Origin: a virus | Reading direction: 5' to 3' (one strand) | Virus record (IMG/VR): IMGVR_UViG_3300020469_004451 | Span: 39,474 to 103,473 of that record | Length of the DNA: 64,000 nt | Part shown: positions 3,933-64,000 of the stretch, piece by piece | How positions within the stretch are numbered: the first letter of the stretch is position 1 | Layout of the letters: each line of letters opens with the position of its first letter | The notes under the pieces: generated by a model | The model's input: only the letters and a program-made list of their open reading frames with translations | Databases searched by the model: none | What the model was told of the DNA's origin: nothing | Position numbers and translations under genes: made by a program

Positions 3933-6425
3933 ATGGCTACAGAACATTCTAGAAAAAATTTAGGCTCTTTATTTGGGGGAGAAATTATGTCTATCAACTA
4001 TAATTTCCAATCTGGTTCAGAAGCATCAACTTGCACTCTAACAATTATTAGTGAGAATAATGAATATAATGTGCCAAAGATGAATGAAAAAGTTCACATA
4101 CCTCCGTTTGGTCTTGAGATGATAGTCTTAGAGACTTCTCTAAGACAAGATAGTAAATTTACTACTTTACAAGTAGAGTTGATTGATTCGATGTCAGAGA
4201 TTTTAGACAGAGAAATGGTCTTTATATGGGGAACTCATACTGACATGAGAGGAAATTTATCTTCTAATGGATATTTAATTGATAAAACACTTTTTCTCTC
4301 TCCATTAGATTATCCAAAAAACACTAGGTTTTCACGTAATCTAGCTCGTCCTACAACATCTAGAAATTTTAACAAAAATTTTGGTAATGGAGTGAATGTT
4401 ATTGGATTTGGAAGGATTACCCTGAGAGAAGAAGCTTCTCGCACAATAACCATTGACCCCTCCGCAGAGCAATTAATTGATGGTAATACTTTTGTAGAAG
4501 AAAAAAGGGTGGTTATTGATGCATTCGAGTTAAATAGAACATTAACTACCGACAAAACAATGTTATTAGCAAATCACCTTCCTTTAATCTCGCTTGGTTA
4601 TGATCCAGAACAAGCTGAGTTAAAGTTTGGTTATACTGCATCAGACTTATTCAAACTATTTCTTTCAAAAGGTATTTCATTTGAATCTAATGATGAGCGT
4701 TTTTTATCAGATGAAAATATAATGTTTTCCGATTCTGGAAGTTTTAGAAAAGTTTTATCAAGTGTATTATCAAAAATAGGTAGGTCTTTTTATGTAGATC
4801 CATTTACTCAGAAAATACATATTGTTACAAATGGTGAAATAGCATCTATTAATACAAATTTAAACAATATGTATTTGAATTTTGAAAATACAGAATCCGC
4901 AGAGCAACTTACATTAACTAAAAGTATAAAAAATGTAGAAGCAACTCATCATTTTATAAAAGGACAGGCTACTAAATTTGTAGGAGAGAATTCTTCTTCC
5001 ACGTCTGTTGCACCGAAAGCAAAAAAACATGTCTTATACAAGTTAAGTGGAGAGGAACTCTTTAAAGAGTTGGATCTAAAAGAGGCAGACATAAAATTTG
5101 CCAAAATAGTCGCACCTTTCTACAATAGAACACAAGATACAGAAGCTACAGATAAACTTGTTTTTGCTTTAGGGGAAACTAGGCCGTTTGAGCTTAATGG
5201 CACTTATTATGGACCAGATGAATATCGTTATTCGGACGTGAATCTGTTAGATAAAAACAGAGGGAACTGGTTTAGCGTTATAAATTCTGATGATAGATAT
5301 AATTTCTTTGACTTCGATCCTAGTATCTCTACAGATGCTATACGATTATTAATAAATGGAAAAAATGCCATTTCTGTAAGCGAAGCCAATTATCTTGCTT
5401 TTATCGACAGTTATATGACTCTGTTGGGAGGCGTTTATATTAGCAGCCCTATTTCAAAGAGAAGATTAGATCGTAGGCAATATCTTGACACAGAGTTAAA
5501 ATCAGGAGAATATGTTATAGCTATAGCAGATGCAAACGAATTCATAGATAACGTTCCCGAACTTAGTTTCTTGCAGAAATTACGAATAAAAGCAGCGAAT
5601 AAAACGGGAGGTAAGATTAAAAATATTAGAGTAAAGGATTTAGCTGCAAGACTAAAAATATTACAAGGGGATGATGAAGAAGAGGATAATACATCTGATG
5701 ATGAGGATGATGAAGGTAATCCTCTTGGGTCTAGATTCCATGTAATTGCAGTTAGAGATATGAAATATTTTAATGACAACGGGATATCTGAAGATGAAGG
5801 TGAAGGGTTTTCTGAAAGAATTCACAAAAACTTTTACTTATTTACAAGCACACAGGGTCGTTTTCTTGTAAAGCAAGATAATAAAAGCACTAGTAAAGCT
5901 GAAGATATAGCAAAAAGATGCGAGCAAGCATTTGATGATACTGGAGTATTAGATGGAGTAAAGGAAAAATTAATTGTAAAGTATATGGTGGTTGGAAATG
6001 ATAAAAGCTCTGGTGACCAGCAAGATACTAGCTCACCAGAAATTAATTTTCTTAGAACTGATTTGTCTAATGTAAAACAATTTGCGTCACGGCAATTCAG
6101 CGTATTTTCTTCTGAATACGAAGAAGCGAACCATTTTATTAAAAATATAAATACGATTAATCCAGAATTTGAAGGACCATTTATTACAACTGATATAAAA
6201 TATTTTAGACCTCCAGAAAGAGCCGATTTTGATATGGATAAAGGTGTTAGCTCTATTTCTGTTTCAATGGGCGCTCAAGGTATTTCTACATCTATTAGAT
6301 ATTCTTCAATTAAGTTCGCTCAAATAGATACATCTTTATCTAGAGAATTTTTAGGTTCATCAACAACTGATCAAGTTAAGAGATTTTCTCAAAATGCTTT
6401 TGTTAAAAATAGAATTGGAAGTTAA
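3933..6425 (+). CDS. Large putative tail/baseplate-hub-like protein
   Basis: ~830-aa ORF; ATG at 3933 directly after the upstream stop is preferred over TTG 3888; function from context only. Confidence 0.45.
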   Translation: MATEHSRKNLGSLFGGEIMSINYNFQSGSEASTCTLTIISENNEYNVPKMNEKVHIPPFGLEMIVLETSLRQDSKFTTLQVELIDSMSEILDREMVFIWGTHTDMRGNLSSNGYLIDKTLFLSPLDYPKNTRFSRNLARPTTSRNFNKNFGNGVNVIGFGRITLREEASRTITIDPSAEQLIDGNTFVEEKRVVIDAFELNRTLTTDKTMLLANHLPLISLGYDPEQAELKFGYTASDLFKLFLSKGISFESNDERFLSDENIMFSDSGSFRKVLSSVLSKIGRSFYVDPFTQKIHIVTNGEIASINTNLNNMYLNFENTESAEQLTLTKSIKNVEATHHFIKGQATKFVGENSSSTSVAPKAKKHVLYKLSGEELFKELDLKEADIKFAKIVAPFYNRTQDTEATDKLVFALGETRPFELNGTYYGPDEYRYSDVNLLDKNRGNWFSVINSDDRYNFFDFDPSISTDAIRLLINGKNAISVSEANYLAFIDSYMTLLGGVYISSPISKRRLDRRQYLDTELKSGEYVIAIADANEFIDNVPELSFLQKLRIKAANKTGGKIKNIRVKDLAARLKILQGDDEEEDNTSDDEDDEGNPLGSRFHVIAVRDMKYFNDNGISEDEGEGFSERIHKNFYLFTSTQGRFLVKQDNKSTSKAEDIAKRCEQAFDDTGVLDGVKEKLIVKYMVVGNDKSSGDQQDTSSPEINFLRTDLSNVKQFASRQFSVFSSEYEEANHFIKNINTINPEFEGPFITTDIKYFRPPERADFDMDKGVSSISVSMGAQGISTSIRYSSIKFAQIDTSLSREFLGSSTTDQVKRFSQNAFVKNRIGS

Positions 6426-10745: not shown

Positions 10746-11213
10746 ATGTTCGTAGAAGTTACTAATCAACAGAATATTCTGCCTAAGAATAATGGTGATC
10801 TAGGTTATGATCTTGTAGCTTCGTCTGATCCAGTTTTTGATTACGAAAATCAATTTATAGAATACTCTACGGGAGTCAGGTTAGCACCGTTTGCGGATAC
10901 AATTCACGGGTTGATTTTTCCTCGTTCAAGCATTTCTAATAAATGGTTGACTCTTGCCAACGGAGTTGGGGTTATAGATTCTTCATATAGGGGAGAAGTA
11001 AAGCTAAGGTTTCGCTATCTTTGGCCGATGCATGAGACGATAGAAGGATATTCTAAAGTTAAATTTGATAAGATTTACAAAAAAGGAGATAAGATCGGTC
11101 AATTAGTTTGGTTTCCAGAGCAAATACTTAGCAACTACGTTGAGGTTGACAAATTTAGTGATTGCAAAGAATCACAAAGAGGCGAAGGTGGGTTCGGCTC
11201 TACAGGAGAATAA
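10746..11213 (+). CDS. dut: dUTPase (trimeric)
   Basis: GYDL, PRSS, GVIDSSYRGE and RGEGGFGSTG motifs. Confidence 0.95.
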   Translation: MFVEVTNQQNILPKNNGDLGYDLVASSDPVFDYENQFIEYSTGVRLAPFADTIHGLIFPRSSISNKWLTLANGVGVIDSSYRGEVKLRFRYLWPMHETIEGYSKVKFDKIYKKGDKIGQLVWFPEQILSNYVEVDKFSDCKESQRGEGGFGSTGE

Positions 11214-11215
11214 TT

Positions 11216-11845
11216 ATGGATGATAAAATTTACGTAGCTTTTACTGGATTCGCTCGTTCTGGAAAGGATTCTTTTTGTTTTGAGTTTCAGAGACAAGTAG
11301 AAGATTTTTCTCCTAACTTAACAGTAAGTATCTTGTCTTTTGCCGACCGCATACGCCAAGAGGTTGGAGCATTTGTGCAAGAGGAATTTGGGATATCAGC
11401 TTGGACGGAAGAGGACTCTGAAAAAGAAATCATCAGACATTTTTTACGAGGTTATGGAATGTCAAAGAGAACTAAGGATAATCTCTACTTTGTAAAAAAG
11501 CTTCAAAAAAGAATAGATGCTTTAGATAATTTATATTCTTCGCTTAATGTTGTTCTCATATCTGATTTAAGATTCGCTCAGTTTGATCAAGATGAACTAT
11601 CTTGGTTTCATAGTAAACGAAAGAATCTTCATATTCATATTTGTAGATATAAAAAAGATTCAGATGGAAAACTTCAAAAAATAAAAGCACCCAACGAAGA
11701 CGAGGCTGCGAATGAAGAGAAACTAGAGGATGCAGCAGATTTAGTTATTAATCTACCTTGGGAAGATGATTTGGGTCAATTTAAAAATGTAGTAAGAGAA
11801 AAATCCTCTCAAATCCTTAAAGAAAATATTAATTTATTTTTATGA
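11216..11845 (+). CDS. Deoxynucleoside monophosphate kinase-like P-loop protein
   Basis: GFARSGKD Walker A, SFAD, ISDLRF; start reassigned to ATG 11216. Confidence 0.75.
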   Translation: MDDKIYVAFTGFARSGKDSFCFEFQRQVEDFSPNLTVSILSFADRIRQEVGAFVQEEFGISAWTEEDSEKEIIRHFLRGYGMSKRTKDNLYFVKKLQKRIDALDNLYSSLNVVLISDLRFAQFDQDELSWFHSKRKNLHIHICRYKKDSDGKLQKIKAPNEDEAANEEKLEDAADLVINLPWEDDLGQFKNVVREKSSQILKENINLFL

Positions 11846-12429
11846 TCAAAATAGAAGATTTACAATTGGTGAGAGAGGTAAAGGAGGCGAAAAGTGAAGA
11901 CGCTTTGCTTGAGCTTGTCGAAAGGCACTCAGGTCTTTTCTATAAAATAATTTCAAAAAACTTGCCGTTTTCAAAAAATTCTTGGGATGTTGAAGAATTA
12001 GTCCAAAGAAAAGAACATTTGTTTTACGAGGCTATTGAAACGTTTGATCCAGATAGGAATATAAAGTTTCACACTTGGCTGGCAAACAAAACTAAGTATC
12101 TTTGTCTAAGTCAAAGGTCTAAATTAAGAGACGAACCAGATTTTTGTGAGTTTGATGAGGGATTTGGTGGAGAAACGCATCTTTCTCCAGATGCCTATCT
12201 CTCAAAAAAAGAAGAGGTAGAGAGAATTTTGTTTTTGGCTTCTAAAAGATGCACACCAAAAGCACTTGAGATTTTTGAGAAAAAATATTTTGGTGGCGAT
12301 AACAGGGCGGGTTTATCCTTTACTGAAATTGCAAAAGAAATGGAGATTAGTCCTCAAGCGGTTCAAGCTAGTCATGCCAAAACGTTAAAAGTAATAAAGA
12401 AAGCTATTTTAAATGAAAGTGTTATTTGA
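11842..12429 (+). CDS. Phage RNA polymerase sigma-70 family factor
   Basis: Region 2 (AIETFDPDRNIKFHTW) and region 4 HTH (SFTEIAKEMEISPQAV). Confidence 0.85.
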   Translation: MIKIEDLQLVREVKEAKSEDALLELVERHSGLFYKIISKNLPFSKNSWDVEELVQRKEHLFYEAIETFDPDRNIKFHTWLANKTKYLCLSQRSKLRDEPDFCEFDEGFGGETHLSPDAYLSKKEEVERILFLASKRCTPKALEIFEKKYFGGDNRAGLSFTEIAKEMEISPQAVQASHAKTLKVIKKAILNESVI

Positions 12430-39228: not shown

Positions 39229-39504
39229 ATGAGTATTCTAAAGTTGATTCAGACTGTCTTACGGTTACTTACAGGTTATTTTGAGCTTAAAAACAAGTCG
39301 ATTTCCTTTGATTTGGTTCGCGACTCTGAAAATCGTCAAGACGACTTGATTCAACAGATTGAATATTTAAGAGAAAAAGCAACAGAGGAATCCACTTCTA
39401 AAGCTGATTTTCTGAGGGGTAGACTGCAAAGAGAAAAGAAATATTATGAAGACATTCTTGTTAGTAATGCTGCTGATGATGGCAGCGACACTGGTGGCTT
39501 GTAA
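39229..39504 (+). CDS. Putative i-spanin-like protein
   Basis: N-terminal amphipathic/hydrophobic segment and coiled coil; 3' end overlaps a lipoprotein gene. Confidence 0.45.
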   Translation: MSILKLIQTVLRLLTGYFELKNKSISFDLVRDSENRQDDLIQQIEYLREKATEESTSKADFLRGRLQREKKYYEDILVSNAADDGSDTGGL

Positions 39505-51066: not shown

Positions 51067-51147
51067 GTGTAAAAATCGCAAGTTTTTTTGGTGTTAGCCC
51101 AAATATAGCGAAGCTTTTTTGGGTTTTGATGTGTAATAAAAGAAGAC

Positions 51148-52175: not shown

Positions 52176-52204
52176 TTGACATTTAAATTCATATGCGGTA
52201 TAAT
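52176..52204 (+). promoter_or_regulatory. Consensus sigma70 promoter TTGACA-N17-TATAAT
   Basis: Exact consensus, 9 nt before the ATG at 52214. Confidence 0.85.
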
Positions 52205-52213
52205 GTTGCCGTT

Positions 52214-53161
52214 ATGATTGAAAATTATTTACCCGACATCATTGGGCAAGATAGTGTAAAACAGAAACTCGCCATGTATAAGCTCTCTTATCAGGGCGGC
52301 GACAAACTTCCATTCCTACTCTTTACTGGTAGTAGGGGAAGCGGTAAAAGTAATCTTGCTCGTCAATTCAGAGAAACGCTCGTAAACAAGAATGGAGATA
52401 CACCGCCTATCCTTGAGGTGAACGCATCTGCCATTAGAAGCGTCGATAGCTTCTACGATCAAATTTACAGCAAGTGGCATGAGCATAACGCGACTTTGTT
52501 TATTGATGAATCTCATATGCTCATTGACAAACTCCAAGCAATCTTCTTAACAGCACTTGAAGTCAAAGATGATCCAGTGAGGAGAGTTACATTTGAACAC
52601 AAGGAGATGGGACAACAAGAATTTGTTTTTGATTTTAGAAAAATGTCAATCATCTTCGCTACTACAAATCAAGAGAAGATGGAAGCTCCGCTTGTTAATC
52701 GCTTTGAAAAGATTGCTTTGCAACCTTACACCGAACACGAATTACTTCAAATCTTTTTGAAGAATATAGGAGACGTAAGGTTCTCACCTGAATCGTTAAC
52801 AAACATTCTTAATGTTTTCCGAACTTGTCCACGCGATGTCGTAAAGCTCGCTAATAACATTGTTTCTTTTACAAAGGCAATCGGCAACCTCTTTATAAAC
52901 GAAGAAAAACTTGCTCGTTTTTGTAAAATGATGGGCCTTTACAAGTATGGTCTTTGCGAAGCGGAAATGCAAATCATAAAACTGCTTGGCGAAAGGGGAG
53001 CCTGTTCATTGAACGCAATCGCAGCAGCGACGAGCTTCTCAAAGACAGTCGTTCAGCAAGACTATGAGTTCATGCTGCTGAATAAAGGTCTTATGGACAT
53101 AGACGGCAAGCGAAGATTGACCAGCAGAGGCATGGAGCTATATGCCGCATCCTTTAAATAG
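52214..53161 (+). CDS. ruvB: Holliday junction branch-migration ATPase RuvB-like
   Basis: IIGQ..VK, G.RGSGKS, LFIDE.H, FATT....PL.NRF, Y...EL, C-terminal E..L...G.....R.LT..G. Confidence 0.8.
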   Translation: MIENYLPDIIGQDSVKQKLAMYKLSYQGGDKLPFLLFTGSRGSGKSNLARQFRETLVNKNGDTPPILEVNASAIRSVDSFYDQIYSKWHEHNATLFIDESHMLIDKLQAIFLTALEVKDDPVRRVTFEHKEMGQQEFVFDFRKMSIIFATTNQEKMEAPLVNRFEKIALQPYTEHELLQIFLKNIGDVRFSPESLTNILNVFRTCPRDVVKLANNIVSFTKAIGNLFINEEKLARFCKMMGLYKYGLCEAEMQIIKLLGERGACSLNAIAAATSFSKTVVQQDYEFMLLNKGLMDIDGKRRLTSRGMELYAASFK

Positions 53162-55735: not shown

Positions 55736-56107
55736 ATGGGGAAAGGACAAATCTTTATCTTTATTGAGTATAAGAAGAACAAGGTATATCAAAATACATA
55801 TAACAGCATTGCAATGGCAAAGGGTATTGTCGATGCTACAGTAAATAATAATAGAGATAATATTAAGTGGGCTTGTGTATGGGATGCAAATAAAGTATAT
55901 TATGAACTAATATGCGACGATTATTGTGAGATATTGCAAATACTACATGATCTAAACCTTGGAGGCAAGGTAACTAAAGCAATACCAAAGAAAGAGTTGG
56001 CTAAGATAGCTGAAGACAATCCAAAGCTATTTGATAAATACCTAGATTATATAGCAGAAACGCAAAAAAACAAGAAATTCTTTTCGATTAGAAGCAAATT
56101 TAGCTAA
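55736..56107 (+). CDS. Hypothetical protein
   Basis: 123-aa ORF with GTGTAA 8 nt upstream. Confidence 0.55.
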   Translation: MGKGQIFIFIEYKKNKVYQNTYNSIAMAKGIVDATVNNNRDNIKWACVWDANKVYYELICDDYCEILQILHDLNLGGKVTKAIPKKELAKIAEDNPKLFDKYLDYIAETQKNKKFFSIRSKFS

Positions 56108-56176
56108 TATGTCGAAATAATACAAAATCTGAGGCTCCTTAGAGGCGACACCCCCATGTCGCATTTATACAAAAAC

Positions 56177-56205
56177 CGCCCACTTTTTTGGCGCGCGCCA
56201 AATAA
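56177..56205 (+). repeat. 29-bp GGCGCGC-containing repeat, copy A
   Basis: CGCCCACTTTTTTGGCGCGCGCCAAATAA, near-identical to 57279-57307. Confidence 0.75.
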
Positions 56206-56303
56206 TAAGACCCGCGCTAATCGCATAAAAAAATCCCCGCTTTTTAGATTTGGGCCAAATAAGTATTGACTTATACATTAGACCTGATATAATAGCAACT
56301 GTT

Positions 56304-56846
56304 ATGAATATCTTTTGTCTCTCCGAAGACCCAACAGAAGCCGCCCAAATGCAATGTGATAAACATGTCGCCAAGATGTGTGTAGAGTATAGCCAACTAC
56401 TAGCCACTTGTTTTTCTTTAAGTCGTTTGGCAGAGGACGATTGCCCAAGAACACAATCAGGTAATCCAAGAAAACATTTTAATCCAAAGCATCCAAGTTC
56501 TATATGGACAAGGCTATCTAAAAGTAATATGCGTTGGTTGATTAGACACGCTACCGCGCTATTCGATGAATTTGAATTAAGGTTTAATAAAAAGCATTTC
56601 TGCCGCGACTTCCTTAGTTGGGTAATTCTAAATATCTATGATGCTGATGTAGAAGAAGGAAAGCTTACTGACTTCTCAATAGCTATTAGCCAAGATTCTT
56701 TGTGTAGGCAAGACTTCAGATTCGATTTTGCATCCTCAGTGGACAAATATAGATTGTATTATATACATGATAAGAAGGCATTTGCCAAGTGGAATAAAGG
56801 TCGCTCTGCTCCACAATGGTATTATAATATGAATGTTAAGGCTTGA
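56304..56846 (+). CDS. Pyrimidine-dimer DNA glycosylase (DenV-like) family protein
   Basis: MNIF.L..DP..AA...CDKHV.KM..E..QLL, HP...W, YR.YY..K..FA.W; promoter at 56266-56293. Confidence 0.75.
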   Translation: MNIFCLSEDPTEAAQMQCDKHVAKMCVEYSQLLATCFSLSRLAEDDCPRTQSGNPRKHFNPKHPSSIWTRLSKSNMRWLIRHATALFDEFELRFNKKHFCRDFLSWVILNIYDADVEEGKLTDFSIAISQDSLCRQDFRFDFASSVDKYRLYYIHDKKAFAKWNKGRSAPQWYYNMNVKA

Positions 56847-56875
56847 CTTTAATTATAATTCATTTAGAATAGGGA

Positions 56876-57292
56876 ATGGACTTACCAACACACCGCCCTT
56901 ACTACAAATACGAGCAAAAAAGAAAAGAGCATAATGAACAAGCGGATTGCTGCGTTTGCTCTATATCTCATGCCTGTGGAGTCTCTTATGAAGAAGCACA
57001 CGCTGCGTGTAAGAAAGCAGGGAGGAAGCATAGAGTGGGAATGTATGACAACCAAATAATAAGGGCTGTTAGGATATTAGGTTTTAAACTAACAAAAGTA
57101 AAGTGCAAATCTAAAACGATGAGAACTTTACATAGGAACATTAAGTCTAATAAATCTTTTCTTGTGTTTGTCAATCAGCATCTTAGTTCTATTGTAAATA
57201 AAGAAACATGGGATGTGGGTATTAAGAACAAATGCAGTAGGATACAACAGGTTTATCTTGTAGAGAAGCTTGGAAATTCGCCCACTTTTTAG
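56876..57292 (+). CDS. Hypothetical phage protein (DC.V.SI..A...Y motif)
   Basis: ORF with its own TTGACT-N16-TAGAAT promoter (56843-56870). Confidence 0.65.
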   Translation: MDLPTHRPYYKYEQKRKEHNEQADCCVCSISHACGVSYEEAHAACKKAGRKHRVGMYDNQIIRAVRILGFKLTKVKCKSKTMRTLHRNIKSNKSFLVFVNQHLSSIVNKETWDVGIKNKCSRIQQVYLVEKLGNSPTF

Positions 57293-57307
57293 AGGCGCGC
57301 CAAATAA
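57279..57307 (+). repeat. 29-bp GGCGCGC-containing repeat, copy B
   Basis: CGCCCACTTTTTAGAGGCGCGCCAAATAA. Confidence 0.75.
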
Positions 57308-57417
57308 GTAATACCTGATTAGTTTTCTTCTTTATCTTTGTTTACTCACTTGCGAAAACAGAACTATACAGGAAAACCCCTTGACTTTCAAATAGAATAG
57401 TATAGAATAGTAGTGTT

Positions 57418-57765
57418 ATGAGTATTTCATCCGTTTCAACCCTTGCTGACAAATGCGGGGCAGATTCATTAGCTAAGTTAGGTAAACATTTTTATGATAT
57501 TACAGAGTGTGGTGCAGGGACAGAGTTCGTCACAATGGACGAGTCCTATCTATACACAGATGATTATTATGGTATAACCAGACCTTTGCCGAACATATGG
57601 GCAGGGAAAGTGGTAGGCATCAAATTCTATACTATAGTAGAAGGGTCAGATGCAGAGTTCTCTTGTGACCTAGTTACATTCCCATGTGAGTATAGCGAAA
57701 TACAAGAGTGCTTGGACTATTTAGAAGATCAAGCTACTGCCGCTTTTGAAGAGGACTTTAAATAA
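57418..57765 (+). CDS. Hypothetical acidic protein
   Basis: ORF with its own TTGACT-N16-TAGAAT promoter (57381-57408). Confidence 0.65.
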   Translation: MSISSVSTLADKCGADSLAKLGKHFYDITECGAGTEFVTMDESYLYTDDYYGITRPLPNIWAGKVVGIKFYTIVEGSDAEFSCDLVTFPCEYSEIQECLDYLEDQATAAFEEDFK

Positions 57766-57871
57766 AGACATTCATATATTAATCTTAATCATGGTAGGAA
57801 CAATCCTTTTCTTCTTAAATAAATAATTTGTGTTAGTTCACCCTCTATGAAGGGTGTGTTGGTTGAACACG

Positions 57872-57907
57872 ACGGGCGCGGGACTCATCTCCTGCGCCCG
57901 TTTTTTT
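57872..57907 (+). terminator. Strong intrinsic terminator ending the plus-strand early block
   Basis: ACGGGCGCGGGA...TCCTGCGCCCGT followed by a T run. Confidence 0.8.
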
Positions 57908-57978
57908 GTATATACGCAAATAACCAATATTAGATTATAGCCATTATTGTTTTATGTGATTAGTATATTATGTGTTGT

Positions 57979-58057
57979 TGTAAGTCGTTGATACTTAGGG
58001 AGTTACGAAGGGCGGGGGGGCGCGCGCTCGCAACTCGTTGAGTTACAAGCAGTTACG
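57979..58057 (+). repeat. 79-bp double-palindrome element, copy 1
   Basis: Arms 57979-58007 and 58029-58057; 21-bp core AAGGGC-G7-CGCGCGCT. Confidence 0.9.
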
Positions 58058-58066
58058 CATCTTCTG

Positions 58067-58231
58067 TCATATTTTATTAGTTAAAGTTTTTTCTTCGATA
58101 CCAAAACCAGTTAGGTCTTCATTCCTGACGCAATCCCTTAGATATTCAAGTATTTTATCAAATGCTTCATCCTCTGTTTCTGCTTGGAACCAATCGTGGA
58201 ATGTAACAACGAAAGTTTTTTCTTCTGTCAT
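58067..58231 (-). CDS. Small hypothetical protein (54 aa, not in ORF track)
   Basis: MTEEKTFVVTFHDWFQAETEDEAFDKILEYL...; co-oriented with neighbours. Confidence 0.6.
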   Translation of the reverse strand: MTEEKTFVVTFHDWFQAETEDEAFDKILEYLRDCVRNEDLTGFGIEEKTLTNKI

Positions 58232-58235
58232 ATTA

Positions 58236-58376
58236 TTATCCGCTGAAGTCTACCAGAGAAACATCTGTAGAAATGAATCCGTCCTCTAGCCTGTGATTCA
58301 TAAGAGCGAAGAACTCAAAAAGATATTGGATCTCCTTCTCTTCTGTCATTTCATATAGCGAGTTGTTGACTATCAT
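58236..58376 (-). CDS. Small hypothetical protein (46 aa, not in ORF track)
   Basis: MIVNNSLYEMTEEKEIQYLFEFF...; fills the gap with 3-4 nt spacing. Confidence 0.45.
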   Translation of the reverse strand: MIVNNSLYEMTEEKEIQYLFEFFALMNHRLEDGFISTDVSLVDFSG

Positions 58377-58379
58377 AAT

Positions 58380-58733
58380 TTAAACCTTTTCAATGATTTC
58401 TTGTATTGTATTGAACGTAACAAGGGCTTTCACCTCGTCAAGTGTCATCTTGACATCTGTTGAATCTCCAGTTTCGATGTCGCACCCTGCGATGAAACCA
58501 TTGCCAGCAAAAGGTTGATGCACTCGATGGACTCCTTTAATCTCAAAAAAGAATTGCTGTTCTTTAAGTAGACCCTCCTCATCCACAAAAAGAGTGTCGT
58601 TTGTTTCGTAGTTTGTCCATCCACATTCGATCCAATCGCACCCCATCAGCACATTAGCCTCTGGATAAACGGTATCGACCTCTTCGACGGTGATTTCTTT
58701 AGTTTTGGCGTTGATTAAGTATCCTTTGATCAT
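58380..58733 (-). CDS. DUF3846-like hypothetical protein
   Basis: GCDWIE...LFVDEEGLL...FAGNG.I.G; own promoter at 58741-58768. Confidence 0.65.
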   Translation of the reverse strand: MIKGYLINAKTKEITVEEVDTVYPEANVLMGCDWIECGWTNYETNDTLFVDEEGLLKEQQFFFEIKGVHRVHQPFAGNGFIAGCDIETGDSTDVKMTLDEVKALVTFNTIQEIIEKV

Positions 58734-58790
58734 GGCTTATATTATAACATACAAAAAAGAAAAGTCAAGGTATTTTTGAATTAAAATTAA

Positions 58791-58864
58791 CATCTCTCAT
58801 AGGAATCGAACCTATAACCTTCGGATTAGAAATCCGATGCTCTATCCAGTTGAGCTAGAGAGAC
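58791..58864 (-). tRNA. tRNA-Arg (anticodon TCT), CCA not encoded
   Basis: Cloverleaf: acceptor GTCTCTC/GAGAGAT, D arm GCTC/GAGC, anticodon stem TCGGA/TCCGA with loop TTTCTAA, T arm ATAGG-TTCGATT-CCTAT. Confidence 0.93.
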
Positions 58865-59154
58865 TTTTCGAATAATTCTTTTCTCTGCTCTGCTTTGGTT
58901 TGAAGTCTCAGAAAATCTTCAGCATATCTCCAAACTGAAACAGTTTCGGGGCATTCTTCAATCGCAGTTAGGAGCCTATCAGCAACAGCTTCTATATTAT
59001 ATCCGTCGCGTAATTTATCGAAGAAGGCTAGATAAATGCAGTAGTTGGAATCGGAGGACGGCATATTAGTTTTCCTCCACCTAATCAGCGAGTAAGTATC
59101 ATTGCGGGAGGACTCGCTCTTGAATTCAATATCTCCTATTCTGTAGTTGTCCAT
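58855..59154 (-). CDS. Hypothetical protein
   Basis: Own promoter TTGACT-N16-TATAAT (59161-59188); 3' end overlaps the tRNA. Confidence 0.65.
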   Translation of the reverse strand: MDNYRIGDIEFKSESSRNDTYSLIRWRKTNMPSSDSNYCIYLAFFDKLRDGYNIEAVADRLLTAIEECPETVSVWRYAEDFLRLQTKAEQRKELFEKSL

Positions 59155-59213
59155 AGCGTTATTATACCATTTTCCAAAACAAAGTCAAGTTTTCTTTTCT
59201 TTTATCATTACGC

Positions 59214-59292
59214 CATAAGTCGTTGATTATTAAGGAGTTACGCCAGCGCGGGGGGCGCGCCGCCGTAACCCGTTGACGCTCAACGAGTTACG
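59214..59292 (+). repeat. 79-bp double-palindrome element, copy 2
   Basis: Arms 59214-59242 and 59264-59292; core CCAGCGC-G6-CGCGCCGC. Confidence 0.9.
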
Positions 59293-59303
59293 AGGCTTAC
59301 TGA

Positions 59304-59549
59304 TCAATCACCACAACTACAATTTTTATTTAAGTTACAGACCAACGTTTGCAGTTTTCTCTCGATGCTTTTCGCGCCGTCCTCTCCCCAAAACCAACTT
59401 AATTCTCTAGCCCAATCGAATTTTTCATTTTCATCTGTTACGTGTGCGCTTGTTAGTAAGATTTCGCAAGTGTTAGGATCGTATCGCGTATCTATCAACG
59501 CAGTGCTTTCATCTGGACAAGGCAAAAGAACTCTCAGTATATATTGCAT
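59304..59549 (-). CDS. Hypothetical protein
   Basis: 81-aa ORF, co-oriented with neighbours. Confidence 0.55.
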   Translation of the reverse strand: MQYILRVLLPCPDESTALIDTRYDPNTCEILLTSAHVTDENEKFDWARELSWFWGEDGAKSIERKLQTLVCNLNKNCSCGD

Positions 59550-59626
59550 TTGTTCTTATGAAAAGCTTTGGTGAATAAAGAATACGATGCAGCCGACGAC
59601 GATAAGGTAAAGTGTATAGAAGTCCA

Positions 59627-60319
59627 TTACCCTATGACAAAACCAGTATTGTCTTTTTTTGCAAGTCCTTTCTCGACTAGCCCAACGACAACGTTGTTGG
59701 GATCAAGGAAGCGTAGGTCATCTTCATCTCCATCCACAACTGCTCTGCCCTTCCAGCTTTTAGGAAGTTGATTGCGAAAGACTGCCGCGACATTGCCTCC
59801 ACTGGCAAAAAGAGAATCGCAAAGGGATTCATTATCTTCCTTACGAGAGAATGTAAGGTGATAGTTTGACGGTAGCTCGCCAGCAAGGTAAGAAGTAAAC
59901 CTCTGCGGGTCTGGAGTATAATCATAAAACTGAACTCCCTTGAACGCATCTAGAACAGTCTCGCCAGCGTTCTTGATTTTGTGGAATGGCAAATCGCTTG
60001 TGAGATTCAAGCGGAAGCACGGTGACATCGCCTTACGTGCCGCACTTTTGATAGAGCTTTCAATTTCCTTCCAAAGCATATCAAGGAAGGTCTGCCGCTC
60101 TTTAAAGAACAAAAGAGTTTTATTGATTCTGGCGGTTTGCACGTTGGACATTGCGCCCCGTCCAGCCGTATTAAGGCAAGCCGCAGCACAGCCAGCACTA
60201 GCATTAGCGCAGACATTATAACCAGAGATTTTTTCGGGCGCAAGGTGCATACCATAGGTGATATAACCTTTTGCCTCGCCTTTCTTCGTTTTGGTATTGC
60301 CAGAGTTAAGTAACTTCAT
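59627..60319 (-). CDS. GP88-like phage protein
   Basis: N.K..K, LAP, CANASAGCAAACL..AGRG, RLN.TSD, FYDYT, NYHLTFS, DGD..DLRFLD; promoter at 60341-60368. Confidence 0.75.
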   Translation of the reverse strand: MKLLNSGNTKTKKGEAKGYITYGMHLAPEKISGYNVCANASAGCAAACLNTAGRGAMSNVQTARINKTLLFFKERQTFLDMLWKEIESSIKSAARKAMSPCFRLNLTSDLPFHKIKNAGETVLDAFKGVQFYDYTPDPQRFTSYLAGELPSNYHLTFSRKEDNESLCDSLFASGGNVAAVFRNQLPKSWKGRAVVDGDEDDLRFLDPNNVVVGLVEKGLAKKDNTGFVIG

Positions 60320-60376
60320 GTATTAGGTGGTTGAGATTGTATTATACAGTAATTTAAATTAAAGTCAAGCCATGAT

Positions 60377-60853
60377 TTAGGAATCGTAATCTCTTCTTTT
60401 ATTTGCTTCGACTACAAGCTTTTCCATGCAATCATTATTATGCTTACAGGTCACAGGATACTTACAGGTAGATTCAACGCACAATTTGTCCGCTAAGATT
60501 TTACCCTTGCCAGAATCAATAGCCAATGAGACAAGCCCCGCGCTTAATACCTTTTCTTCTTTTGTTGTATAAAAGTGGGCAAACTTATATGGGTTATAAG
60601 ATATTCTTGTGGGCGTTTCAATAGATGCCTCCGATACAAAGCCCTCCACAAATGCGTGGACGTTCTTTCGCTTCTCTCTTAGAACCCTAGCCCTGCCAGC
60701 TTGAGACACCTTAAACTTTGCGTCCTTTAAGATTATGTTAGAAGAATATCCCCTAACAATCCAACTACCCTTCTCATTCTTCTGCTGAACAGAAAAAACT
60801 TTTTTATGCAAGTTAAAGTAAACTCTAACAGGCTTTTGATTGTCGATATTCAT
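60377..60853 (-). CDS. Conserved hypothetical phage protein
   Basis: VYFNLHK..FS...VSQAGR.RVLREKRKNVHA...YNPY motif set. Confidence 0.7.
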   Translation of the reverse strand: MNIDNQKPVRVYFNLHKKVFSVQQKNEKGSWIVRGYSSNIILKDAKFKVSQAGRARVLREKRKNVHAFVEGFVSEASIETPTRISYNPYKFAHFYTTKEEKVLSAGLVSLAIDSGKGKILADKLCVESTCKYPVTCKHNNDCMEKLVVEANKRRDYDS

Positions 60854-61104
60854 TAGTAAGATAAAACCTCAAAAGAATTTGTCTCTTCTAAGAAAGCACC
60901 AGACTTATCTGGCATAGGATAACCACCAACGGTAGCATCTGGAAATCTACCGAAACAATATGTTCTGTAAACGCCCGTAATGCCTTTCATCTTACCCTTA
61001 TCATCTTGGTCAAAAATTTCTGTTACCCTGACAATATAATAGGATTCCTTGGAACCCGTAGGAGTAACCTTCACAATAGAACCAGTTCTGAGATGCTCGA
61101 TCAT
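60853..61104 (-). CDS. Hypothetical protein
   Basis: ATG 61104 preferred, downstream of TTGCGC-N16-TATAAT (61111-61138). Confidence 0.6.
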   Translation of the reverse strand: MIEHLRTGSIVKVTPTGSKESYYIVRVTEIFDQDDKGKMKGITGVYRTYCFGRFPDATVGGYPMPDKSGAFLEETNSFEVLSY

Positions 61105-61208
61105 GTCCAGATTATACCATAAAATAGAAATAGCGCAATATATTTTTATTAGTAATATATCACGCAATCGCGCCATGCCAGTTGGCATCTATTTTTTTCT
61201 TGACAAGT

Positions 61209-61287
61209 CATAACTCGTTGATTATCAAGCAGTTACGACGGCGGGGGGGGCGCGCGCTCGTAACTCGTTGAACCTCAACGACTTACG
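61209..61287 (+). repeat. 79-bp double-palindrome element, copy 3
   Basis: Arms 61209-61237 and 61259-61287; core ACGGC-G8-CGCGCGCT. Confidence 0.9.
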
Positions 61288-61312
61288 AACACTAGCGTTT
61301 AGACAATAAAAC

Positions 61313-61336
61313 AGGGCGCGAGTTGCCCCGCGCCCT
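61313..61336 (-). terminator. GC-rich hairpin/terminator (duplicated at 63188-63211)
   Basis: AGGGCGCGAG..CCCCGCGCCCT downstream of the DUF932 gene. Confidence 0.6.
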
Positions 61337-61362
61337 ATCATATGCCCATTTGTGTGTGAGTG

Positions 61363-62346
61363 TTAGTCGATCACTGCGACCTCTTCTGTCTGCGCGACCT
61401 CTTCGGCCTCTGTTTCTGCGAAGCTCTCTTCGAAGTTTGCTTGGCCCTCTTCGCTGGAAGGATCACCCTCTTGAGCGATTTCCTCACCAACAACGCGAAC
61501 GTGTCCAGCGACCGCATCCATGAGAGACTGCATATTCATTGTGCGCGTCGGCAACTTGGAAAGATCGGAGCCTTTGAGGATTTCGGTGACGGCATTGTAA
61601 AGCCCCCACAGGTTTTCACCCTGACCAAACTCCAAAGCGAGTTCCGCTTCTTTCGCACCTACAGCAACGTCGAACGCCTCTTGATCGAGATCATCCACGA
61701 AACCTTGCTCGCCTTGAGTGGTCACGATGAAGTCATCTTCCTCGATCATATTCTTGGCGGCAAGCTCTGGTTTTTCCCAAAGCTGGATAACGTCGTAAAG
61801 CTTTTGCTTCATCAACGCACCACCGTCTACAAGTCTTACAGCCAGTTCAGCAGCTTCGGCGCGCGTCAATTCGCAATCCTTGTAGGATTCGATGCGCTTT
61901 GACATATCAAGCCATTCAGTCACAAGCGAGGCGATCACCTTAGTGATTACGCTAGGCAAGTCGCGCAAGATTTGCGTGGTGTGGCGGCGACCGATTACTT
62001 TCTCGGAAGAGAAGCAAAGGTTGTCGCACACCATCATGCGGTTGCCAATGCAAATGCCAGCAGCGAAAGCCTTGTCGTGAGAGTTGCGAAGACCGCAAAC
62101 AATCTGGCGATCTTCGCCAGCAAGGTCTTCGCGAGTGAGAGCAAACCCGCCAAAGTAGCGCAAGCCGCCACGGTCGAGTTTGTGAGCTTCTTCGACAATC
62201 TCAAAACCAGCAGCCTCAAGAGCTTTTTTGGTTTCGTCGATTAGCGTAGTGTGGGGAATCGGAGTGTGGCGACCAGTGGAGTCAGGAGTGACAACAGCGG
62301 CGACTTCTTCAATTGAGCAGGTTCTGTTTCCGTAGATTAGTGACAT
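61363..62346 (-). CDS. DUF932-family protein
   Basis: H.PIPH..L, GLRNSHD, G....VCDNL.F, RRHT, LWGLYNAVTE; promoter at 62383-62411. Confidence 0.75.
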   Translation of the reverse strand: MSLIYGNRTCSIEEVAAVVTPDSTGRHTPIPHTTLIDETKKALEAAGFEIVEEAHKLDRGGLRYFGGFALTREDLAGEDRQIVCGLRNSHDKAFAAGICIGNRMMVCDNLCFSSEKVIGRRHTTQILRDLPSVITKVIASLVTEWLDMSKRIESYKDCELTRAEAAELAVRLVDGGALMKQKLYDVIQLWEKPELAAKNMIEEDDFIVTTQGEQGFVDDLDQEAFDVAVGAKEAELALEFGQGENLWGLYNAVTEILKGSDLSKLPTRTMNMQSLMDAVAGHVRVVGEEIAQEGDPSSEEGQANFEESFAETEAEEVAQTEEVAVID

Positions 62347-62403
62347 GATATTTTAATTAGGTTTTAGGTTAACAACAAGGAGAGTATAAACTATTTTCTT
62401 TTA

Positions 62404-62607
62404 TTAGTCAAGAGAATATCCGAAATTATTTTCAATTTCTTCATCCTCACATTCGGTTCCGATGGAGCAAATCCCGCGAGTCAGCGAAATCTCATCGTAA
62501 ACATCTTGAAGGCGTTCGCGCAATAACGGGTTACCATCAAGCGCGGATTGTGTTAGGTCATCAAGGCCAAAGTCGGCTATCAGTTGGGCATCTGTTTTAT
62601 CAGGCAT
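62404..62607 (-). CDS. Hypothetical acidic protein
   Basis: 67-aa ORF with a promoter-like sequence at 62614-62642. Confidence 0.55.
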   Translation of the reverse strand: MPDKTDAQLIADFGLDDLTQSALDGNPLLRERLQDVYDEISLTRGICSIGTECEDEEIENNFGYSLD

Positions 62608-62712
62608 AGAAATAATTTAGCGTATTAAGTGGTTTACCTCAAGACTTTTTTTATTAGCTTAGATCACGTAATCGCGTAACATGGGTTGGCATGGTTACTG
62701 AAACGCAATCTG

Positions 62713-62791
62713 CGTAAGTCGTTGAGTATCAGTGACTTACGACGGCGGGGGGGGCGCGCCGTCATAACTCGCTGGCGCTCAACGGGTTAGA
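62713..62791 (+). repeat. 79-bp double-palindrome element, copy 4
   Basis: Arms 62713-62741 and 62763-62791; core ACGGC-G8-CGCGCCGT; overlaps the stop codon of 62787-63011. Confidence 0.9.
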
Positions 62792-63011
62792 CATCATACC
62801 CCATTGATCGCCCGTAAGCTAAGAGCCGGTCATGTTCGCGCTCGTATTCGCGAAACTCTACCGTCCCTAACGGGTAGGGGTTGAACTCCTCGGTTTCGGG
62901 ATTCCAATCGCACCCGCACTCAGCGTTCGCGGACTGATGCGCCCTCTGCTTGGGCGACAGGCTTGGGTTGGTATGAGGGTTTTCGGTGGTAGCGTAATCG
63001 TTGTTGTTCAT
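62787..63011 (-). CDS. Hypothetical protein
   Basis: Single gene between repeat copies 4 and 5; promoter TTGATT-N16-TAAATT (63018-63045). Confidence 0.6.
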   Translation of the reverse strand: MNNNDYATTENPHTNPSLSPKQRAHQSANAECGCDWNPETEEFNPYPLGTVEFREYEREHDRLLAYGRSMGYDV

Positions 63012-63084
63012 AGATGTAATTTACCACATTATCAGAATAAATCAAATTCTTTTTGTGTGTTTTATATAGCGCGATTGCGTATTA

Positions 63085-63163
63085 TATAACTCCTTAACAA
63101 TCAAGCAGTTACAACGGCGCGCCCCCCGCGCAGCCGTAACTCGTTGACGCTCAACCAGTTACA
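63085..63163. repeat. 79-bp double-palindrome element, copy 5 (core inverted)
   Basis: Arms 63085-63113 and 63135-63163; core ACGGCGCG-C6-GCGCAGC. Confidence 0.9.
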
Positions 63164-63424
63164 CGCACTAACATATAGGCACGACATAGGGCGCGAGTCT
63201 CCCCGCGCCCTAGCCATGAACAAGAACCGCAAACCGTATGCGATGTTAAGAAAAAATGTTATGTTCTCTCAGATGCCAGCGGGAATTTATGTCCAAAGGG
63301 TATCTCCTTGTCACCCGCCCATAATGGCAAGACCTTTTTTATCTTATGACATCTGGGAAAACACAATATTTATTTTTTTGGTATTAGGGCGGGGGCTGCT
63401 AGTGGCATACCCCCGCCCATTCTT

Positions 63425-63679
63425 TTATTCACCAACAAGGTTGAAGTCAGTGATTCGGATGCCCTTGAAGGAACGGATGCCTCCGTTAGTCCTATCACTA
63501 GCATAATTGTAGAACGTCCAGTTACCGTTATCATCTGGAGTGCCAGTGTCAAGTCGCACCCTGCGCTGACTCGCTCTACCTTTACCGTCCACATAGCTGA
63601 ACGTAGCAATTGCAGGTTCTCCGTTAAGGATTTTCTTTGCTATTTCAACTTTGACTTCTGCGTTTAGTTCTTTTAACAT
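63425..63679 (-). CDS. Stand-alone WYL-like domain protein
   Basis: FSYVDGKG..SQRRV.....Y...R....RSF...RI pattern; promoter at 63735-63763. Confidence 0.6.
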   Translation of the reverse strand: MLKELNAEVKVEIAKKILNGEPAIATFSYVDGKGRASQRRVRLDTGTPDDNGNWTFYNYASDRTNGGIRSFKGIRITDFNLVGE

Positions 63680-63776
63680 TTTGGATTTACCTTTCTGTTT
63701 TTTGTTTTGATGAAGCGGATTTTCCGCTGAGAGTATTATAAACTATGTTTTGATTAAAGTCAAGACTTTTTTTGCA

Positions 63777-63986
63777 TTAAGCGTGGCAGCAATAGTAAAC
63801 CCACTTATCTCCTTCTTCATATCCATAGACATTACTGAGATTCATCATGCAAAGGTATTCAGCTACCTCTTCACCGAAGCCTTTTGTGCAAGGGTCATTA
63901 TCACAGATCACCACGTAATCACAGTCATCGTAAAGACCATGATGCTCCTTGTCATATTGTTCTACAGTAACTTTTAATTTGTCCAT
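63777..63986 (-). CDS. Hypothetical protein
   Basis: 69-aa ORF with a TATACT -10 box just upstream. Confidence 0.55.
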   Translation of the reverse strand: MDKLKVTVEQYDKEHHGLYDDCDYVVICDNDPCTKGFGEEVAEYLCMMNLSNVYGYEEGDKWVYYCCHA

Positions 63987-64000
63987 GAGGTAGTATAGCA

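Follow-up and report, generated by a model that had tools for sequence, protein, structure and literature searches.

What is the role of a short, strictly built palindromic module that recurs between the early genes of an uncultured marine phage? The question is raised by a 64,000-nucleotide stretch of a virus record (IMG/VR record IMGVR_UViG_3300020469_004451, positions 39,474 to 103,473), hereafter the window, in which a 79-bp element made of two palindromes on either side of a GC-rich core occurs five times between positions 57979 and 63163. An earlier note on this DNA had proposed that the copies are either recombination sites for exchangeable gene cassettes, of the tyrosine-recombinase or attC type, or binding sites for a dimeric protein, arranged in tandem with a constant pitch of 50 bp. 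The second proposal is supported by the sequence comparisons described below, in which the palindrome arms vary independently, the half-sites show purifying selection, the central triplet is free and the pitch is constant. With about even confidence, we propose that the 79-bp element holds two symmetric 27-bp sites, rigidly paired on duplex DNA, at which a dimeric, DNA-bending protein would dock; a homodimeric protein of the host that resembles integration host factor (IHF) would be the most likely candidate. The identity of this protein, the bending and the effect on transcription are all predictions from sequence.

The element family and its half-sites

Pattern scans compared with shuffled sequence bore out the five copies in the window, which are positioned as follows (TCAR-N4-TTR is the IHF-type core discussed in the next section):

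57979..58057: copy 1; palindromes 57980-58006 and 58030-58056; GC core 58007-58029 with its G-run on the + strand; at the junction where + strand genes (terminator 57871-57902) converge on the last early gene of the minus strand (58067-58231); 2 of 4 half-sites match TCAR-N4-TTR
59214..59292: copy 2; palindromes 59215-59241 and 59265-59291; 10 bp past the stop of the open reading frame (ORF) 59304-59549(-); centre of the promoter-side palindrome 42.5 bp upstream of the -35 box centre of the promoter at 59188-59161(-)
61209..61287: copy 3; palindromes 61210-61236 and 61260-61286; about 23 bp downstream (minus-strand sense) of the terminator hairpin of the DUF932 gene; 4 of 4 half-sites match TCAR-N4-TTR
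62713..62791: copy 4; palindromes 62714-62740 and 62764-62790; overlaps the TAA stop of ORF 62787-63011(-)
63085..63163: copy 5; palindromes 63086-63112 and 63136-63162; GC core inverted, with its C-run on the + strand

A scan of the window for 12+3+12 palindromes returned ten, all within the five elements and two per element, and the pitch of each pair is exactly 50 bp from start to start in all five copies. The full palindrome pattern matched 4 times against 0.00 expected from 100 shuffles, while the core word GGGGGGCGCGC is confined to the five element cores (9 overlapping matches against 0.03 expected). In copy 5 this word lies on the minus strand, which means that the GC core is inverted, and the order of the flanking terminator and promoter is unchanged. 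The overlap of copy 4 with a stop codon, which the earlier note had pointed out, was borne out. Its palindromes of 29 bp were found two to a copy as described, the best-conserved unit being 27 bp (12+3+12) with a weakly conserved extra base on each side. The five elements that it listed are all present in the window, and the array runs on past the window's end: a metagenome contig (L240) that is 99.8% identical to positions 57682-64000 extends to window-equivalent 67295 and contains three further elements, a triplet at 64544-64668 and doublets at 64949-65025 and 66091-66167, so that the element array of this phage spans about 8 kb (window plus L240).

Scanning of relatives for the element, as the earlier note had suggested, revealed a family that is found across 121 IMG/VR loci and in bacterial chromosomes. 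An exact-pattern search of IMG/VR with the palindrome returned at least 119 stretches, and all family counts are drawn from these loci and refer to the matches listed in that search (121 loci). Among the matches listed are 686 palindromes, 498 of them distinct and all of the form 12+3+12, which occur as 258 doublets, 116 singles, 10 triplets and 6 quadruplets. Among these matches, the pitch of the doublets is 50 bp (164 times), 58 bp (59 times), 51 bp (21 times), 48 bp (12 times) or else 52 or 42 bp, and it is constant within a genome, be it the window, the IMG/VR loci or the long relatives. Most element clusters (313 of 340) are intergenic, with 179 between co-directional, 53 between convergent and 35 between divergent gene pairs, and they lie nearer to the upstream stop (about 50 bp) than to the downstream start (about 110 bp). 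In the relative G002 (106.6 kb, 56% polymerase identity) the 29-21-29 module stands at syntenic places, in the order DUF932, terminator, element and promoter, and the contig itself begins within an element. The copies in three long relatives with genomes of 100-150 kb, one of which is rated 100% complete, are limited to one or two stretches of 3-7 kb. DUF932 and GP88 genes accompany the elements in phages at 39 loci each; the relative G005 (IMGVR_UViG_3300042549_009011, 147.7 kb) has both genes twice (16.3-18.3 kb and 141.0-142.6 kb) and also has two separate element clusters, at 24.1-27.0 kb and 140.3-143.0 kb. A search of viral contigs with a pattern that included the G6 core gave 0 matches, a protein search with DUF932 among viral contigs found no relative, and a literature search with words from the half-site returned primers only and no printed description of the element. 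The element family is large and apparently undescribed, and belongs to uncultured marine phages.

The linkers between the paired 27-mers vary by class. In the 50-bp class, the 23-nt linker has a GC content of 89% against a background of 42%, and its sequence differs by lineage; a hairpin in this linker was considered and rejected, as its fold energy (-9.7 kcal/mol) is close to that of shuffles (-8.8 kcal/mol). The linker of the 58-bp class is a terminator hairpin (GACCCC, a stable tetraloop, GGGGTC and GTTTTG), found in either orientation, with a fold energy of -13.7 kcal/mol against -7.0 kcal/mol for shuffles. Some lineages have fused a true terminator into the module.

How the palindrome is read, as a folded strand or as a duplex, can be judged from the way in which its two arms change. 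Each half-site, with the consensus G-T-A-A-S-T-C-G-T-T-G-A, drifts separately: at 12 of 12 arm pairs the frequency of Watson-Crick pairing equals the product of the column frequencies, with no compensatory changes. At positions 5 and 23, where both C and G are common, the combination CG occurs 185 times, CC 106 times, GG 94 times and GC 78 times. As the arms vary independently, there is no selection for pairing; a hairpin function would need co-variation of the arms, and since none was found, the hairpin reading is disfavoured. Substitution rates among orthologous copies in close relatives are 5.7% in the flanks, 2.3-2.7% in the half-sites, 3.9% in the GC linker and 13.3% in the central triplet, which means that the half-sites evolve 2-2.5 times more slowly than the flanks and that the highest rate is that of the central triplet. 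Purifying selection acts on the half-sites and leaves the central triplet free. The palindrome points to a duplex site for a dimeric protein that would read two 12-bp half-sites, not to a hairpin.

Fit to a proposed homodimeric IHF-like protein

The conserved columns of the right half (T16 in 95%, C17 in 88%, A18 in 100%, position 19 with A in 89% or G in 11% only, T24 in 98%, T25 in 100%, and A or G at position 26 in 99%) spell TCAR-N4-TTR, of which the left half is the mirror image, and the consensus of Escherichia coli IHF is WATCAR-N4-TTR (PMC3897727). TCAR-N4-TTR is present in 78-82% of the 996 half-sites of the IMG/VR set and in 15 of the 20 in the window, and the full WATCAR-N4-TTR in 33-35% of half-sites. 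When symmetric sites with equal column conservation were randomised, none of 20,000 fitted TCAR-N4-TTR as well in any register. The facing cores also place two kink-prone steps, T9-T10 (86% and 100% T) and A18-A19 (100% and 89% A), 9 bp apart. Two proline-induced kinks lie 9 bp apart in complexes of IHF and HU with DNA, and this is reportedly the kink spacing of IHF itself. The classical features of the E. coli site, namely asymmetry, an A/T-rich 5' half and an alpha-beta heterodimer as binder, were not found, the site in the element being a dyad of two cores. Such a dyad fits a homodimeric relative of IHF rather than the classical E. coli type of site: with two IHF cores in perfect symmetry, it has the form that a homodimer of an IHF-like protein would be expected to favour. 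Full conservation over a 27-bp footprint is expected of a protein that wraps DNA and is unusual for a helix-turn-helix dimer.

Known IHF sites occur upstream of sigma-70 promoters, at origins and at att sites, with lambda H', lambda PL and Mu Pe as examples. Like the IHF sites of E. coli, the element has TCAR-N4-TTR at invariant columns, a footprint of about 27-35 bp and contexts that include early promoters, dnaA or origin regions, rep genes and integrase or att regions. Unlike them, it is a predicted site that fuses two cores head to head, which implies a homodimer, its N4 is conserved, and it is rigidly paired, at a distance of 50 bp, with a second such site across a core of about 90% GC. 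Homodimeric members of the HU/IHF family with sequence preference and sharp bending include TF1 of phage SPO1, which is found at phage early promoters, and Hbb of Borrelia, which is found near dnaA. The proposed binder would be like TF1 and Hbb in acting as a homodimer on specific, roughly symmetric sites. It would differ from TF1, which is phage-encoded and prefers DNA with hydroxymethyluracil, in that no HU/IHF gene was found in the searched relatives; to our knowledge, the site sequences of TF1 and Hbb are unrelated to those of the element.

The same dyad is found in bacterial chromosomes. An exact search of one genome per species (185,579 species) returned 26 stretches, only from metagenome-assembled genomes (MAGs) labelled Fibrobacter, Akkermansia, Verrucomicrobiales, Lentisphaerae or Victivallales, or Bacteroidota, from one further MAG and from one contig labelled Enterobacterales. 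Counted per genome with three mismatches allowed and with the reversed pattern as a control, dispersed palindromes number 11 in an Akkermansia genome, 8 in a Fibrobacter genome and 8 in a Verrucomicrobiales genome, while the reversed control gave 0 everywhere; a second genome from the phylum sample has 12 palindromes at sites that largely repeat those of Akkermansia, and probably is Akkermansia. A palindrome lies directly upstream of dnaA in Akkermansia, and at the argS locus of Akkermansia a palindrome abuts inverted words that resemble DnaA boxes (TGTTCCACA); another lies at a Fibrobacter locus that is syntenic with it. Palindromes also lie upstream of two plasmid Rep (RPA/Rep3) genes and, in Bacteroidota, between a tRNA gene and an integrase gene. 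By analogy with known sites, the dnaA, rep and integrase contexts are typical of IHF.

Three further observations concern these bacterial and MAG-derived sequences. Beside several chromosomal palindromes of Akkermansia (loci L212, L213, L214, L216 and L210) there is a conserved 13-bp palindrome, GCATT-N3-AATGC, followed by TGTATACT, which is possibly a promoter or the site of a second factor. In a Verrucomicrobiales genome, doublets of 58-bp pitch (L224:2443-2527 and 6218-6302, L225:2501-2585 and L227:2501-2585) lie inside a unit of about 150 bp that has 15-bp inverted ends resembling TTCTACATTGTTAC and is present in at least 4 copies; this unit may be either a small mobile element or a bacterial counterpart related to the phage module. 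The contig CAZSAT010000176.1 (11.9 kb, binned as Enterobacterales, loci L164 and L169) carries phage-type arrays at 42-bp pitch followed by GACTATTTTA and promoter-like words of the TTTG type, and probably comes from a phage of another lineage that was mis-binned, perhaps one with a host of the Bacteroidota type. For the phage of the window, the promoters of the form TTGACT-N16/17-TATAAT would argue against a Bacteroidota host.

Each of the four bacterial genomes examined (Akkermansia, Fibrobacter, Verrucomicrobiales and Chitinophagales) has, beside HU-like genes, one paralogue that scores higher with IHF than with HU models; in Akkermansia it is the ORF at L238:1486-1800 and in Fibrobacter that at L233:1492-1770. 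Its alpha and beta scores are about equal and lie below the equivalog cut-offs, which is the profile that would be expected of a single-gene, homodimeric IHF-like protein. On the phage side, a family search found no protein of the HU/IHF family in the genomes of three relatives, one of them 100% complete, and no ParB_N in the phage relatives; a search for a binder among the conserved small proteins of the phage yielded a sigma factor and a RuvB-like ATPase and no helix-turn-helix protein. DUF932 and GP88 were considered as binders and rejected, being absent from the bacteria that bear the sites. Because the searched relatives have no HU/IHF gene and because DUF932 and GP88 are absent from the site-bearing bacteria, a host protein is the economical candidate. 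Sites of the FNR, CIRCE, parS, dif, LexA and IscR types were compared by eye and rejected on spacing or sequence.

Several points weigh against an IHF-like binder. Conservation extends, at 71-90%, to the N4 positions (CGAS) and the outer G/C, which in close relatives evolve as slowly as the core; E. coli IHF has no need of a conserved N4. A different protein with a 12-bp half-site is therefore a possible candidate. The match with the IHF consensus was spotted only after the logo had been seen. No palindrome adjoins the bacterial IHF-like genes, where it was looked for as a sign of autoregulation. The strict palindrome is present in just 8 of 201 sampled Verrucomicrobiota genomes and is not phylum-wide, so that the motif alone does not settle the host assignment. 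Finally, the distance from the element to the -35 box is variable (42.5-87.5 bp) and 53 elements lie at convergent junctions, which means that a simple promoter activator cannot fit all the copies.

The conserved N4 and outer positions bear on the possibility, which we rate as unlikely, that the element is the operator of a dimeric protein outside the HU/IHF family, encoded by phage or host, such as an early repressor, a silencer similar to KorB or ParB, or a nucleoid protein of the YbaB/EbfC type. Conservation of 12 of 12 half-site positions, beyond the IHF core, and an N4 that evolves as slowly as the core are what such an operator would explain, independent arms are expected for the site of any dimer, and among the products of the phage are many small conserved proteins that have no assigned family. 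The outer pentamers have the form GTnAC, the sequence that EbfC binds (PMC2665219). The fit to TCAR-N4-TTR, in contrast, is far beyond chance, and a conserved 27-bp footprint with TT and AA steps 9 bp apart would be unusual for a helix-turn-helix dimer. No ParB_N was found in the relatives, and a binder found only in phages cannot explain the chromosomal sites, since DUF932 and GP88 are absent from those bacteria. Among known systems, the stoperators of mycobacteriophage L5 are reportedly 13-bp asymmetric and oriented repressor sites of a temperate phage. The element is like them in that many copies of one site of the protein-binding type are distributed across short intergenic spaces of an early arm, and unlike them in that its sites are symmetric 27-bp pairs, that no repressor is known and that the phage is probably lytic.

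Early-region setting and other explanations

All genes at 58067-64000 are on the minus strand. In minus-strand sense, the end of a gene, which in some cases has a terminator hairpin, is usually followed by the element, in some cases by a 10-bp palindrome, and then by a host-type promoter with an ATG about 6 nt further on. The following features flank the copies:

61310..61339, minus strand: intrinsic-terminator-like hairpin with a T-tract, which ends the DUF932 unit just upstream (minus sense) of copy 3
63188..63212, minus strand: hairpin 92% identical to the one at 61310..61339, 25 bp before copy 5 in minus sense
59161..59188, minus strand: promoter after copy 2, of strong consensus; TTGACT, 16 nt, TG-TATAAT; 11 of 12 matches in the promoter scan
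61111..61138, minus strand: promoter after copy 3; weak -35 TTGCGC, 16 nt, TGG-extended TATAAT, 6 nt to ATG 61104 (near-leaderless); read by eye, the -35 being too weak for the promoter scan
62614..62642, minus strand: promoter after copy 4; TTGAGG, 17 nt, TAAATT, 6 nt to ATG 62607; read from the sequence
63018..63045, minus strand: promoter after copy 5; TTGATT, 16 nt, TGG-extended TAAATT, 6 nt to ATG 63011; read from the sequence
61163..61172: 10-bp palindrome CGCAATCGCG, 24 nt upstream of the -35 box of the promoter after copy 3
62667..62676: 10-bp palindrome CGTAATCGCG, 24 nt upstream of the -35 box of the promoter after copy 4
63070..63079: 10-bp palindrome CGCGATTGCG, 24 nt upstream of the -35 box of the promoter after copy 5

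In the window, the promoter-side palindrome and the -35 box are 42.5, 56.5, 87.5 and 87.5 bp apart. The 10-bp palindromes, of the form CGYRATYRCG, are a second and separate type of site, always exactly 24 nt before a weak -35, a TGG-extended -10 and a near-leaderless ATG, and in copies 3 and 4 a palindrome resembling ATGCCA-N2-TGGCAT lies between the element and the CGYRATYRCG site. Every copy of the element stands at a boundary between transcription units, as had been claimed, and there are also boundaries without a copy: four strong promoters of the promoter scan (63763, 62411, 60368 and 58768) have no element upstream. The elements mark some unit boundaries, not all.

The genes of the element region, which encode DUF932, GP88, a protein similar to gp82 of L5, DUF3846, tRNA-Arg(TCT) and small ORFans, are typical accessory material. 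The GC content, which is 31-38% over the main part of the genome, steps up to 41-46% in the element region (58001-64000), where the DUF932 gene stands out as especially rich in GC, consistent with an import of this cargo. The phage encodes a DnaE-type polymerase, a ribonucleotide reductase, a helicase and at least one sigma factor of its own: regions 2 and 4 of Sigma70 are matched by ORF 11842-12429, whose neighbour 11162-11845 is conserved in the relative G005. The sigma factor suggests phage-directed middle or late transcription. With a sigma factor of its own, the phage can use it for later genes while the element region uses that of the host, and it is from this contrast between the phage sigma factor and the host-type promoters that we infer the element region to be early. 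Near the early region lies a gene (52193-53161) for a RuvB-like AAA+ ATPase with a C-terminal winged helix, which is kept in all three long relatives, and a family of 34-nt repeats (AAAACCGCCCAC, a T-run, GGCGCGCGCC and AAATAA) is found at 51072, 56172, 56229 and 57274 (+), just before TTGACT promoters of the + genes that adjoin the early region. The phage is marine and common, at least 93% of the words of the stretch being present in 18 DNA runs from at least 10 studies. A megablast of positions 56000-64000 against INPHARED gave no match, and the best cultured relatives of the polymerase have at most 32% identity.

A further possibility is that the repeats mainly supply homology through which early genes are gained, lost or swapped by general recombination, as do the promoter-early stem-loop elements (PeSLs) that act as homology patches in the T4-type phages RB49 and phi1 (PMC2839356). 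The likeness to PeSLs lies in repeated intergenic modules, small non-essential early genes, host-type promoters, GC-rich cores with G- or C-runs and a hyperplastic region with frequent turnover of cassettes (PMC2839356). The cores are also lineage-specific within a genome (here G6-8 and GCGCGC), which suggests duplication or conversion, such that the copies within a genome descend from or convert one another. In one clear case, L160 has element, module and element where L149 has a single element, and occasional homologous exchange between copies is possible. Unlike a PeSL, which joins promoter and terminator stem-loop in one unit and undergoes homologous exchange, the element has a separate promoter at a variable distance (42.5-87.5 bp to the -35 box), has conserved dyads that resemble protein sites, lies between convergent genes in 53 cases and, in the 50-bp class, has a linker with about the hairpin potential of shuffles.

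Breakpoints are not enriched at the elements. Among close relatives of 81-96% identity (L244, L270, L258, L254, L253, L267, L242, L272 and others) there are about 16 indels or replacements in 11 kb, of which 5 have a boundary at most 30 bp from an element, against about 3 expected, and 11 lie away from elements. The five near events are 58060-58228, 58788-59320, 58790-59246, 58800-59184 and 62790-63320. Three of them (58060-58228, 58790-59246 and 62790-63320) abut an element and speak for exchange at the repeats, while in one of the five the element moves with the cassette instead of bounding it. The events away from elements include clean, gene-sized presence or absence of the tRNA-Arg(TCT) gene (58794-58864) and of the gp82-like gene (60374-60850), both absent in L244 and L270, with boundaries away from repeats; positions 57410-57819 are also replaced among close relatives. 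Endpoints of homology near elements compared with other intergenic DNA number 24 against 17.6 and 96 against 80.7, which is no enrichment, and 8 of 47 clean insertions touch an element against 5.1 by chance. The earlier note had proposed to test whether gene content changes exactly at the elements; in this comparison there is no enrichment over chance or ordinary intergenic DNA, and the data do not single out the elements as sites of cassette change. Homology alone would also leave a 27-bp consensus unexplained across 56% polymerase identity and bacterial chromosomes. We regard an explanation of the element mainly as a homology patch as quite unlikely.

The position of the copies behind genes suggests signals at the level of RNA, such as terminators, processing sites of the RNase III type or hairpins that stabilise the 3' ends of mRNA. 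Copies 1 and 2 sit 9-10 bp past a stop and copy 4 overlaps one, with no other terminator; the linker of the 58-bp class is a true terminator hairpin with a T-tract; and the core is C-rich in the sense strand in 47 cases against G-rich in 21, a mild polarity. The intrinsic-terminator signature of a hairpin with a U-tract, present in the 58-bp-class linkers of other phages, is absent from the window copies, which have no T-tract behind them and none of which is listed by the terminator scan; copies 3 and 5 lie just behind a separate canonical terminator. The arms show no covariation, 35 elements lie between divergent genes, and Rfam matched tRNA only, with no family at the elements. A weaker argument is that contigs of an oligo-dT RNA library cross copy 2 (59163-59313) and copy 4 (62565-62828), where DNA carry-over is possible and contigs cannot show ends; the lack of cover over part of this RNA run does not speak for silence. 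An RNA-level function for the window copies seems improbable on these grounds.

Spread as selfish miniature elements by a transposase, in the manner of repetitive extragenic palindromic (REP) sequences, bacterial interspersed mosaic elements (BIMEs) or miniature inverted-repeat transposable elements, is very unlikely, even though the copies are quasi-palindromic, intergenic and multiple, have lineage-specific cores and have a counterpart in the Verrucomicrobiales unit of about 150 bp with 15-bp inverted ends and at least 4 copies. The Y1 transposase of REP-associated tyrosine transposase (RAYT) type (PF01797) is absent from G002, G004 and G005, and the copies keep to one or two regions of 3-8 kb. 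The elements keep syntenic positions in distant relatives, their half-sites are under purifying selection, and no presence or absence polymorphism of the element alone was found among close relatives. In the RIB/RIP (BIME-1) elements of E. coli, an IHF site is said to lie between two REP palindromes at the 3' ends of transcription units. The element shares with RIB/RIP the form of a repeated extragenic composite palindromic module with an IHF-type site after gene ends. The roles of the parts differ: RIB/RIP has its IHF site as the linker between REP palindromes, whereas in the element the IHF-type sites are the palindromes themselves and a GC core links them. The element also occurs in phage early regions, with no RAYT found in relatives.

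The weakest explanation is site-specific recombination at attC-like sites or tyrosine-recombinase cores, which was the first proposal of the earlier note, is already largely refuted and has next to no credibility left: it has in its favour the shape only, imperfect palindromes bounded by AAC and GTT of which one overlaps a stop codon. The search for a tyrosine recombinase that the note had called for was run in the relatives G002, G004 and G005, one of three searched genomes being complete, and found neither that enzyme (PF00589) nor a serine recombinase. Integron attC sites fold as a single strand through paired R''/R' and L''/L' boxes, vary in length from about 57 to 141 bp and have an adjacent IntI tyrosine recombinase; the element has a constant length within a genome and no folded-strand covariation. 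Core sites of tyrosine recombinases have a crossover spacer of 6-8 bp flanked by arms of 11-13 bp. Within the proposed 7-bp spacer, G11, A12, T16 and C17 are 85-95% conserved and only the central 3 bp are free. Rearranged sequence, which the note had also proposed to look for, was not found at the elements: contigs of three independent marine runs (2019, 2023 and 2025) are collinear with the window across all five copies, over 56500-64000 or 57761-64000, with 12-14 base differences. Apparent joints (58007 to 63133/63135 and others) were considered as excisions and rejected; their sides of 28-31 letters and foreign linkers are those of elements of other phages. Breakpoints, as described above, lie mostly elsewhere.

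Proposed role and implications

For paired docking of an IHF-like protein, we propose the following sequence of events. Upon phage entry, IHF-like homodimers of the host would occupy both dyads of an element. As the facing cores put the TT and AA steps at the kink spacing of IHF and HU, each dimer would make a U-turn in the DNA, and two sharp bends 50 bp apart on a stiff core of about 90% GC would fold about 80 bp into a compact nucleoprotein knot. The knot would stand between the end of one early unit transcribed by the host polymerase and the promoter of the next, where it may serve as an architectural boundary that blocks read-through and the spill-over of supercoils between early units, and/or deliver upstream DNA to the promoters with a weak -35 and an extended -10 behind copies 3-5. 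The boundary role is favoured over that of a classical activator, since the distance to the -35 box varies and some copies lie where genes converge. Homologous exchange between repeat copies would be an occasional by-product, not the purpose. The two palindromes of an element repeat each other in direct as well as in inverted orientation, so that exchange between the two arms would flip the core, which may explain the inversion in copy 5.

A broader and distinctly more tentative proposal concerns the origin of the module. The 27-bp dyad may be the native high-affinity site of a homodimeric IHF-like protein that acts at dnaA, plasmid origins and integrase genes in Akkermansia, Fibrobacter and some Verrucomicrobiales, and a large clade of common marine phages with DnaE-type polymerase may have built from it a fixed twin, GC-clamped module that captures the host protein on entry to set up, insulate or time the early programme.

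The integron-like recombination-site idea, attractive as it was, is unsupported and is corrected here. If the proposed role is true, the dyad motif would predict the hosts of these uncultured phages and link them to host lineages, and it would provide a first handle on host-dependent early transcription in a whole clade of uncultured phages. It would also provide a precise DNA target for the poorly known IHF-like proteins outside Proteobacteria, including that of the culturable gut bacterium Akkermansia muciniphila, in which a copy lies upstream of dnaA.

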